64,000 nt of DNA, from NCBI GenBank assembly GCA_965208425.1, contig OZ242335.1:2119181-2183180 (forward strand), given 5' to 3'. The notes under the pieces were generated by a model. That model was not told the origin of the DNA. It ran no database searches and was given only the letters and a program-made list of their open reading frames with translations. Below, in pieces: positions 62,663 through 63,316 of the stretch (positions are counted from its first letter, which is position 1; every line of letters starts with the position of its first letter). The position numbers and the translations under genes were made by a program. Origin of the DNA: Candidatus Poribacteria bacterium (lineage in GTDB: Bacteria; Poribacteria; WGA-4E; PCPOR2b).

Positions 62663-63316
62663 TGCGTCGAATCCCGCAGTAATACGTAGGTTGGGTTGAA
62701 CGAAGTGAAACCCAACACCCTCCCTGTAGGTCGAGATTCACATCTCGACAGTCTTAGGGATTTCGCGTAGTTTACCCCGATTTATCGGGGCTCAACCAAC
62801 TGTAGGTCAAGATTCACCTCTTGATAGTCCGTAGGTTGGGTTGAACGAAGTGAAACCCAACACCCTCTCTGTAGGTCGGGCATCTTGCCCGACCTACAAA
62901 GCCCCAGAGGGGCGATATGTATATAGCACATCGGTAAACCAATTCATCCAAGCCCCAGTTGCTCTGAATCCCGATTTATCGGGGAGGGGCGACATGTGTG
63001 TCGTAAATTTGGTTATTTCTGATAGATGTGGGGCGTGAAAACTCGACCTACAGGTTGAGCGTAGCAAAATCCCGATCTATCGGGGCTGTCTAGCAACTTG
63101 CGTTATATTAATGAACTCTTGAACCAATGAACTATGGTGAATTCTAAAAATAAATAAACACTTTCGCCCCCCATGTTTGGTAGGCGCTGTTTCCAACTGC
63201 GCCGATTTGGAGTGTCTCATTAATTCTAAAATCCACTATAATGAACTCTTGAACAATAAAGGTAAGGGAAACGACAACTTTACCAACTCACACCAAACGC
63301 TAAAGAGGAGAATACA
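62663..63316. repeat. BIME-like cluster of at least 7 hairpin modules ending in a minimal L-box/hairpin/R-box unit (63131-63243)
   Basis: The modules are GTAGGTTGGGTTGAACGAAGTGAAACCCAAC x2, GTAGGTCGAGATTCACATCTCGAC, GTAGGTCAAGATTCACCTCTTGA, GTAGGTCGGGCATCTTGCCCGACCTAC, CCCCAGAGGGGCGATATGTATATAGCA, a CCCCAG unit interrupted by CCCGATTTATCGGGG, an L-box at 63131-63166, a GGTAGGCGCTGTTTCCAACTGCGCC hairpin and an R-box at 63213-63243. Confidence 0.85.

Follow-up and report, generated by a model that had tools for sequence, protein, structure and literature searches.

The paired L-box and R-box units found in the intergenic DNA of the 64,000-nucleotide stretch of Candidatus Poribacteria sequence analysed here (hereafter the window) most probably belong to a family of non-autonomous DNA transposons (MITEs) specific to Candidatus Poribacteria. 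Because the empty sites in related genomes show a single dinucleotide, the entire unit, from left arm through interior to right arm, inserts as one piece with a 2-bp duplication of TA. The family, which is non-coding, displays features by which prokaryotic MITEs are recognized: inverted repeats, a 2-bp duplication, small size without a transposase gene and many dispersed, polymorphic copies. A MITE-like mobile element had been proposed in a preliminary description of the window, and this proposal is strongly supported by the terminal inverted repeats, the size classes, the dispersal throughout the phylum and two exact empty sites with TA duplication. Full-text literature searches found no description of the repeat content of Poribacteria, and the family appears to be undescribed, yet of an ordinary kind.

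Terminal arms and interiors of the element

Mismatch-tolerant pattern searches returned six L-boxes and eight R-boxes in the window, against 0.00 expected from shuffled sequences, and the same set was retrieved by nhmmer profiles made solely from copies of other genomes, so that the box pattern first reported is real. A Hamming scan placed the L-boxes at 7173, 15456, 34678, 46828, 58875 and 63132 and the R-boxes at 7308, 12630, 15632, 26623, 34776, 46927, 59077 and 63212, with all 14 arms on the + strand. The coordinates of the preliminary description were right within a few bases; its list of L-boxes had overlooked the one at 46828, and its statement that L-boxes come immediately after stop codons applies to just three of the six, the L-box at 7173, for example, adjoining the start of a minus-strand gene.

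The two boxes are imperfect terminal inverted repeats of about 30 nt each, with 22 of 31 positions shared between the L arm and the reverse-complemented R arm. Among 59 distinct copies, 73.5% of the base pairs between the arms form when these are aligned end-to-end, compared with 30–46% after a shift of 1–3 nt; two positions covary between the arms and five never pair. The core AATTCTAAAA, described earlier as common to both boxes, is indeed shared, because each arm holds the near-palindrome ATTCTARAAT, so that the two inverted arms look the same when a single strand is read. The other Poribacteria sequence (660 kb) contained 57 L–R pairs, whose lengths cluster at 106, 129–132 and 141 bp, and a solo L arm was almost never seen. 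Core lengths range overall from 99 to 226 bp, and the termini follow the pattern WWY-TA-TGGTG...CTACCA-TA-RWW.

Three subfamilies could be distinguished by interiors that are unrelated to one another: one with a single GTAG-tagged hairpin, one with inverted pairs of GTAG hairpins and one with a CCCCCTGATAAGGGGG module and no GTAG. Longer copies hold additional small palindromes nested inside. Both arms lack a GTAG tag and show no self-folding. The GTAG-tagged, GC-rich palindromes occur as internal modules only, and the variable hairpin modules are nested GTAG-type REP-like palindromes.

The copy singled out in the preliminary description as the minimal element (63131–63243), here called E8, is a near-minimal unit of the first subfamily, in agreement with that proposal. 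Its core of 104 bp (TGGTGAATT...AATCCACTA; 63135–63238, + strand) has TA on either side (63133–63134 and 63239–63240), the left one recognized by comparison with the empty site of locus L114 and the right one making, with the flank, a CTATAAT string resembling a -10 hexamer. Within the core, the left terminal inverted repeat, or L-box arm (63135–63162), and the right one, or R-box arm (63211–63238), enclose the GTAG-tagged REP-like hairpin GGTAGGCGCTGTTTCCAACTGCGCC (63179–63203), all on the + strand. The remaining complete copies of the window, also on the + strand, are E1 (7176–7334, 159 bp, bordered by TA left and right, within a divergent spacer), E3 (15459–15658, 200 bp, with several REP-like hairpins inside), E5 (34681–34802, 122 bp, downstream of hsdR), E6 (46831–46953, 123 bp, of the subfamily without a GTAG hairpin, in the predicted 5' leader of moaA) and E7 (58878–59103, 226 bp, with several nested hairpin modules). 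The hsdR gene next to E5 belongs to a complete type I restriction-modification system (hsdM, hsdS and hsdR, 27980–34658).

Two solo R-box remnants (12630 and 26623) complete the set. The first is a solo R arm (12624–12658, + strand) whose left arm is deleted, with 29 nt missing relative to the paralogous copy E3; the second (26542–26651, + strand) is a 5'-truncated copy between two minus-strand genes, with a 27-nt palindromic unit nested in its REP loop. The region 9456–18382 contains three tandem paralogous genes with C-terminal domains of the FlgD_ig/CHU_C/Por_Secre_tail type, the spacers of which were duplicated together with the genes, one spacer retaining the L arm and the other having lost exactly 29 nt of it.

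Distribution among Poribacteria

Most hits of a genome-collection scan with the exact 16-mer of the R-box, taking one genome per species, were Candidatus Poribacteria MAGs. Of 92 loci labelled as Poribacteria, 85 contain the extended 31-nt R arm, and these represent about 45 species-level genomes; none of the 21 non-Poribacteria loci in which the 16-mer occurs by chance has it. As the loci were chosen by this 16-mer, R-arm conservation and copy density in them are biased. Matches of the R-arm 16-mer in viral contigs were likewise due to chance, and carriage by phages was rejected. The element is therefore a phylum-wide repeat of Poribacteria and not a local feature, and with some 45 species-level genomes carrying the family, the idea that the boxes might be found only at this locus is clearly contradicted.

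With gene calls in the other loci made crudely from the longest ORFs, 104 of 110 R arms were intergenic, for an intergenic share of about 17% of the sequence (660 kb, about 45 genomes). The genes flanking the window copies are unrelated housekeeping and metabolic genes. Eight copies in 64 kb correspond to roughly 125 per Mb, if the window is typical. At 1323–1430 of the metagenome contig Ga0209544_1000021 (locus L225), directly upstream of a gene, lies a diverged form of the element (TATGGTGAATTTTGAAAATAATTAGTCA...TAATATTTCTATAATTTACTATAA), indicating that other lineages hold subfamilies that are older and have diverged further.

Empty sites and TA duplication

Searches for target-site duplications and for empty sites in related genomes, both recommended in the preliminary description, yielded a 2-bp TA duplication and two exact empty sites, one for E8 in L114 and one for E6 in L106. 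At E8, the window reads ...CCAATGAAC-TA-(63135–63238)-TA-ATGAACTCTTGAAC..., that is ATGAAC-TA-core-TA-ATGAAC, and the spacer upstream of the cupin gene in L114 reads ...CCCATGAAC-TA-ATGAATACTTGAAC..., that is ATGAAC-TA-ATGAAT; taking out 63135–63240 makes the alignment of the two gap-free. An exact-protein look-up returned no record for the cupin gene of the window. At E6, the window reads AAC-TA-(46831–46953)-TA-ATTAACC and the moaA leader of L106 reads AAC-CA-ATTAGCC, so that removal of the core plus one TA again gives a gap-free junction, with CA in the empty site instead of the expected TA. Exact empty sites number only these two, and TA was present on both ends in 59 of 63 copies.

No direct repeats of 3–8 nt were found at the ends at the three alignment positions tested. 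A target-site duplication longer than 2 bp was rejected: the ATGAACTCTTGAAC flanking E8 belongs to an octamer array that predates the insertion, the empty site having it too, and the apparent long direct repeat around E8 arises because the insertion hit a TA within this array. Tandem octamers (NNNTGAAC, often AATGAAC) occur in spacers at 40593–40623, 63107–63132 and 63241–63254, and tandem heptamers (TTTCACG/CATCACG) at 37503–37530, 46680–46725 and 53167–53187.

Copies are polymorphic beyond the exact empty sites. Neither L114 nor L115 has E7 in its orthologous spacer, L106 has copies at two sites that lack them in the window, and other pairs of loci likewise differ in the presence or absence of copies. 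The same gene pairs that in the window are separated by repeat-filled spacers of 566 and 655 bp are separated in L115 by spacers of about 55 bp with no element. L106 also differs from the window in gene content, as three PD40 beta-propeller genes (43583–46479) are missing from this otherwise syntenic locus (43443–46955 of the window versus 1994–2183 of L106).

Proposed promoter and terminator functions

The preliminary description had further proposed that the element acts as a portable cassette donating promoter and terminator functions. We consider it improbable that copies are kept for an outward promoter at the R end, driving the downstream gene, and for termination of the upstream gene by the hairpins. 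In favour of such a role, the R end lies 11–327 bp before the start codon of a + strand gene in seven of the eight window copies, in agreement with the preliminary description; the R end, the TA and the flank together make a YATAAW hexamer; and Correia elements, which have similar ends, carry promoters (PMC10969869). Counts from 85 other Poribacteria loci, however, put a co-oriented gene in front of the R end in 59 cases and an opposed gene in 42 (p = 0.11), essentially the even orientation that had itself been named as an argument against a promoter. Tandem spacers there hold 35 sense and 24 antisense copies, and the 13 copies in convergent spacers versus 15 in divergent ones roughly match spacer length. 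The sixth position of the -10-like hexamer is T in only about half of the copies, no copy has a -35 element, the best candidate fitting two to three of six positions, and a sigma-70 consensus scan did not flag the R arm. The same gene pairs do without the element in L115.

The moaA gene also argues against the cassette. Upstream of E6 and outside the element, at 46770–46798 on the + strand, lies a canonical extended -10 sigma-70 promoter (TTGCAA, a 17-nt spacer and TG-n-TATTAT; TGNTATTAT), which is conserved in two species, in the window and on the reverse strand of L106, at about 84% identity. E6 inserted about 24 nt downstream of the predicted moaA transcription start, moaA thus keeping this promoter upstream of the insertion, and the ortholog does without the element. 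The conservation of this promoter suggests that Poribacteria use standard promoter geometry. The orientation statistics, the absent -35 and the position of E6 behind a conserved moaA promoter led us to reject a dedicated promoter; judged from its sequence and context, the element is not one, though its R end may have incidental activity. An intrinsic terminator was rejected too, as the hairpins are not followed by T runs and were unflagged in the scan. The portable cassette is thus unsupported, and under insertion of a MITE at TA the (C/T)ATAAT-like string of the R end would be a by-product of the element end, the TA and an A/T-rich target, not a selected promoter.

Proposed transposition mechanism

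The whole unit inserts at TA, usually in a WWY-TA-RWW context, and duplicates this TA in doing so. A 2-bp TA target-site duplication is the signature of transposition of the IS630/Tc1-mariner type. A DDE transposase of this type would be supplied in trans, an enzyme class that we infer from the insertion signature, the assignment resting on the TA duplication and on the precedent of RUP (PMC2229807). The centre of the element, which carries other small repeats, mostly GTAG-tagged REP-like hairpins, would gain more of them over time, and the variable number of modules would result from this accumulation.

None of the 49 genes of the window encodes a transposase, and a search through about 0.72 Mb of Poribacteria sequence turned up neither an autonomous element nor a transposase flanked by matching ends. 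Several candidates for an autonomous partner were rejected: end pairs 0.6–3.5 kb apart enclose ordinary genes, the multicopy protein families of the loci are metabolic enzymes, and the DDE_Tnp_1-like gene of L116/L118 has no L or R arms near it. The strand uniformity of the window arms would not be expected of a DDE transposon and speaks against this mechanism, although the bias is weak elsewhere.

This uniform orientation would agree with a mosaic of the REP/BIME type moved by an HUH (Y1) tyrosine transposase (RAYT/TIRYT) instead of a DDE enzyme, in which case a target ending in TA beside an element ending in TA would mimic a duplication. The interior carries GTAG-tagged hairpins, which are typical of RAYT-associated REPs; the window copies and 19 free REP-like modules all lie on one strand; and in other loci the R arms follow the majority orientation of free REP-like modules 22:12. 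Long inverted repeats are also known on both sides of some tyrosine transposases (PMC3733652). Nevertheless, the arms are inverted repeats of each other and not self-folding subterminal hairpins, the E6 subfamily is likewise inserted with TA on both sides while having no GTAG hairpin at all, neighbouring copies in other genomes are mixed in orientation (16 same versus 9 different), and no Y1 transposase occurs among the window genes. Insertion by HUH/RAYT enzymes without duplication is contradicted by the TA duplication at the empty sites, and we regard this explanation as quite unlikely. GC skew, calculated to define the replication strand, was flat. Integron attC-like sites, suggested by the uniform orientation and the position after stop codons, were discarded as well, since orientation is mixed elsewhere and the arms contain no GTTRRRY core.

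Free REP-like hairpins and other small repeats

Besides those inside the elements, free GTAG-tagged REP-like hairpin families fill the spacers, for example GGTAGGTGCGGTTTCCAACCGCACC, GTAGGTCGAGATTCACATCTCGAC and GCCCCAGNGGGGCGANATGT. GTAG-tagged hairpins were located at 4758, 4809, 6288, 7275, 7347, 12185, 12226, 12272, 12545, 15497, 19290, 48009, 57814 and 62684–62901, among others. The 19 free copies all lie on the + strand, including those located between minus-strand genes, and neighbouring free copies are co-oriented 24:5 in other Poribacteria loci, a strand bias which suggests that these hairpins spread in a strand-specific, HUH/RAYT-like manner.

Even smaller repeats were encountered. 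The 27-nt unit CCCCGATAAATCGGGATCGCAAGCAGA in the REP hairpin loop of the truncated copy (26570–26596) is missing from the homologous hairpin of E8 and reappears in reverse orientation in E7, at about 59012–59040, and the window holds 17 occurrences of the 14-nt palindrome CCCGATNNATCGGG; both repeats look like very small nested mobile repeats. A short dispersed motif, TTATGTTAAGAAAT(C/G)GTGCAA, is found in spacers of different genomes (26490–26512 of the window and about 283–305 of L014).

RNA structure

The RNA of the top strand of E8 has a modest predicted fold (-24 kcal/mol, z = -2.3), compared with a stronger one for the bottom strand (-35.7 kcal/mol, z = -5.7), which folds better because the differences between the arms turn into G-U pairs. 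In the moaA leader, E6 is predicted to close as one long hairpin. A co-transcribed element, such as that of the moaA leader, would fold into a long hairpin and could alter mRNA stability or translation, an effect that we infer by analogy with Correia and ERIC elements (PMC10969869). No Rfam family matched at the gathering score, the only hit being a weak and irrelevant match to SorX (E = 0.16) outside the element.

A host function, in place of mobility, as the reason for conservation, with the family acting as a structured RNA (cis-acting or small) or as an operator to which a global regulator binds, is very hard to sustain: the pairing of the arms with covariation, the bottom-strand z-score of E8 and the high conservation of the R arm across species speak for it, but covariation should arise in any inverted repeats to which a single transposase binds, the R-arm conservation is inflated by the use of its 16-mer as search key, no Rfam family matches, copies are missing at orthologous sites, orientation to genes is random and the interiors of the subfamilies are unrelated.

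Comparison with known elements

As a MITE, the Poribacteria element resembles several described families. The Correia elements (CREE, NEMIS) of Neisseria have TA termini, 26-bp inverted repeats, size classes of about 105 and 155 bp and an intergenic location (PMC2229807, PMC10969869). The Poribacteria elements similarly end in TA on either side, are intergenic and possess long terminal inverted repeats (about 30 nt, versus 26 bp in Correia), with cores of 99–104 and 134 bp; as in Correia, their RNA is predicted to form long hairpins, and -10-like strings occur at their ends. Promoter activity and RNase III cleavage were shown for Correia (PMC10969869), for which the published repeat is TATAGTGGATTAACAAAAATCAGGACAA (PMC5039591). 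Its first 11 nt agree with 0–2 mismatches in 95 of 126 Poribacteria arms, a GACA block lies at about equal distance from the end in both, and composition-preserving shuffles gave p ~0.002–0.02 for the likeness. Over the full arm, in contrast, only 11–17 of 26 positions agree with the 26-bp Correia inverted repeat (TATAGTGGATTAA...), and the A/T-rich middle of the arm differs. The host phylum differs as well, and the interior holds GTAG REP-like hairpins or the CCCCCTGATAAGGGGG module in Poribacteria versus an IHF-site insert in Correia, so that a strict Correia identity was rejected on host and interior. The likeness of the arms is a lead, not proof, as to a common origin. On the basis of the terminal 11-mer, the GACA block, the TA duplication and the similar size classes, it is possible, though rather doubtful, that both belong to one cross-phylum MITE superfamily. 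We know of no transposase identified for Correia elements.

The best precedent for the proposed mechanism, the two elements being compared by description, is RUP of Streptococcus pneumoniae, an intergenic MITE of about 107 bp with terminal inverted repeats that inserts at TA and is thought to be moved by IS630-Spn1 (PMC2229807). Unlike the Poribacteria element, RUP has a candidate insertion sequence with matching ends. Another pneumococcal repeat, BOX, has the organization boxA-boxB(n)-boxC, its variable part being a tandem array of one module. The Poribacteria element shares with it two conserved, pairing end modules around a variable number of internal modules, but its variable part consists of nested insertions of several unrelated small palindromes instead of a tandem array; for BOX, to our knowledge, no TA duplication has been demonstrated.

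In Anabaena variabilis, GTAG-15 dimers lie inside TATAGGA...TCCTATA frames (PMC3733652), and the Poribacteria element resembles this arrangement in having GTAG hairpins within a longer palindromic frame with ends TATAG.../...CTATA; like REP/BIME mosaics, it forms intergenic mosaics of several repeat families. The Poribacteria frame differs, however, in that it exists without REP (the E6 subfamily) and in that frame and content move together with TA duplication. A REP identity was rejected, the arms lacking the GTAG tag and showing TA duplication. Finally, ERIC/IRU of enterobacteria, which lies in transcribed intergenic DNA, is an imperfectly palindromic repeat of about 127 bp that has TA termini and internal-insertion variants (PMC2229807, Table 1), all of which recall the Poribacteria element, from which it differs by much shorter perfectly paired termini and by having no sequence relation.

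Significance

Poribacteria are uncultivated sponge symbionts. The MITE family and the nested REP-like hairpins make up much of the intergenic DNA of the window, where spacers swell from about 55 to more than 600 bp. Knowledge of the family prevents the mis-annotation of its ends as promoters and explains assembly breaks and differences in spacer length between MAGs, and the presence or absence of copies provides markers for strain typing. Poribacteria also offer a second, genome-rich lineage in which to seek the transposase behind Correia-like elements. If the cross-phylum superfamily were true, the same kind of transposase would move both families, and the enzyme could come to light in the many complete Poribacteria chromosomes; the R end might then be a mobile outward promoter or RNase III site rewiring gene expression in these sponge symbionts, as in Correia.
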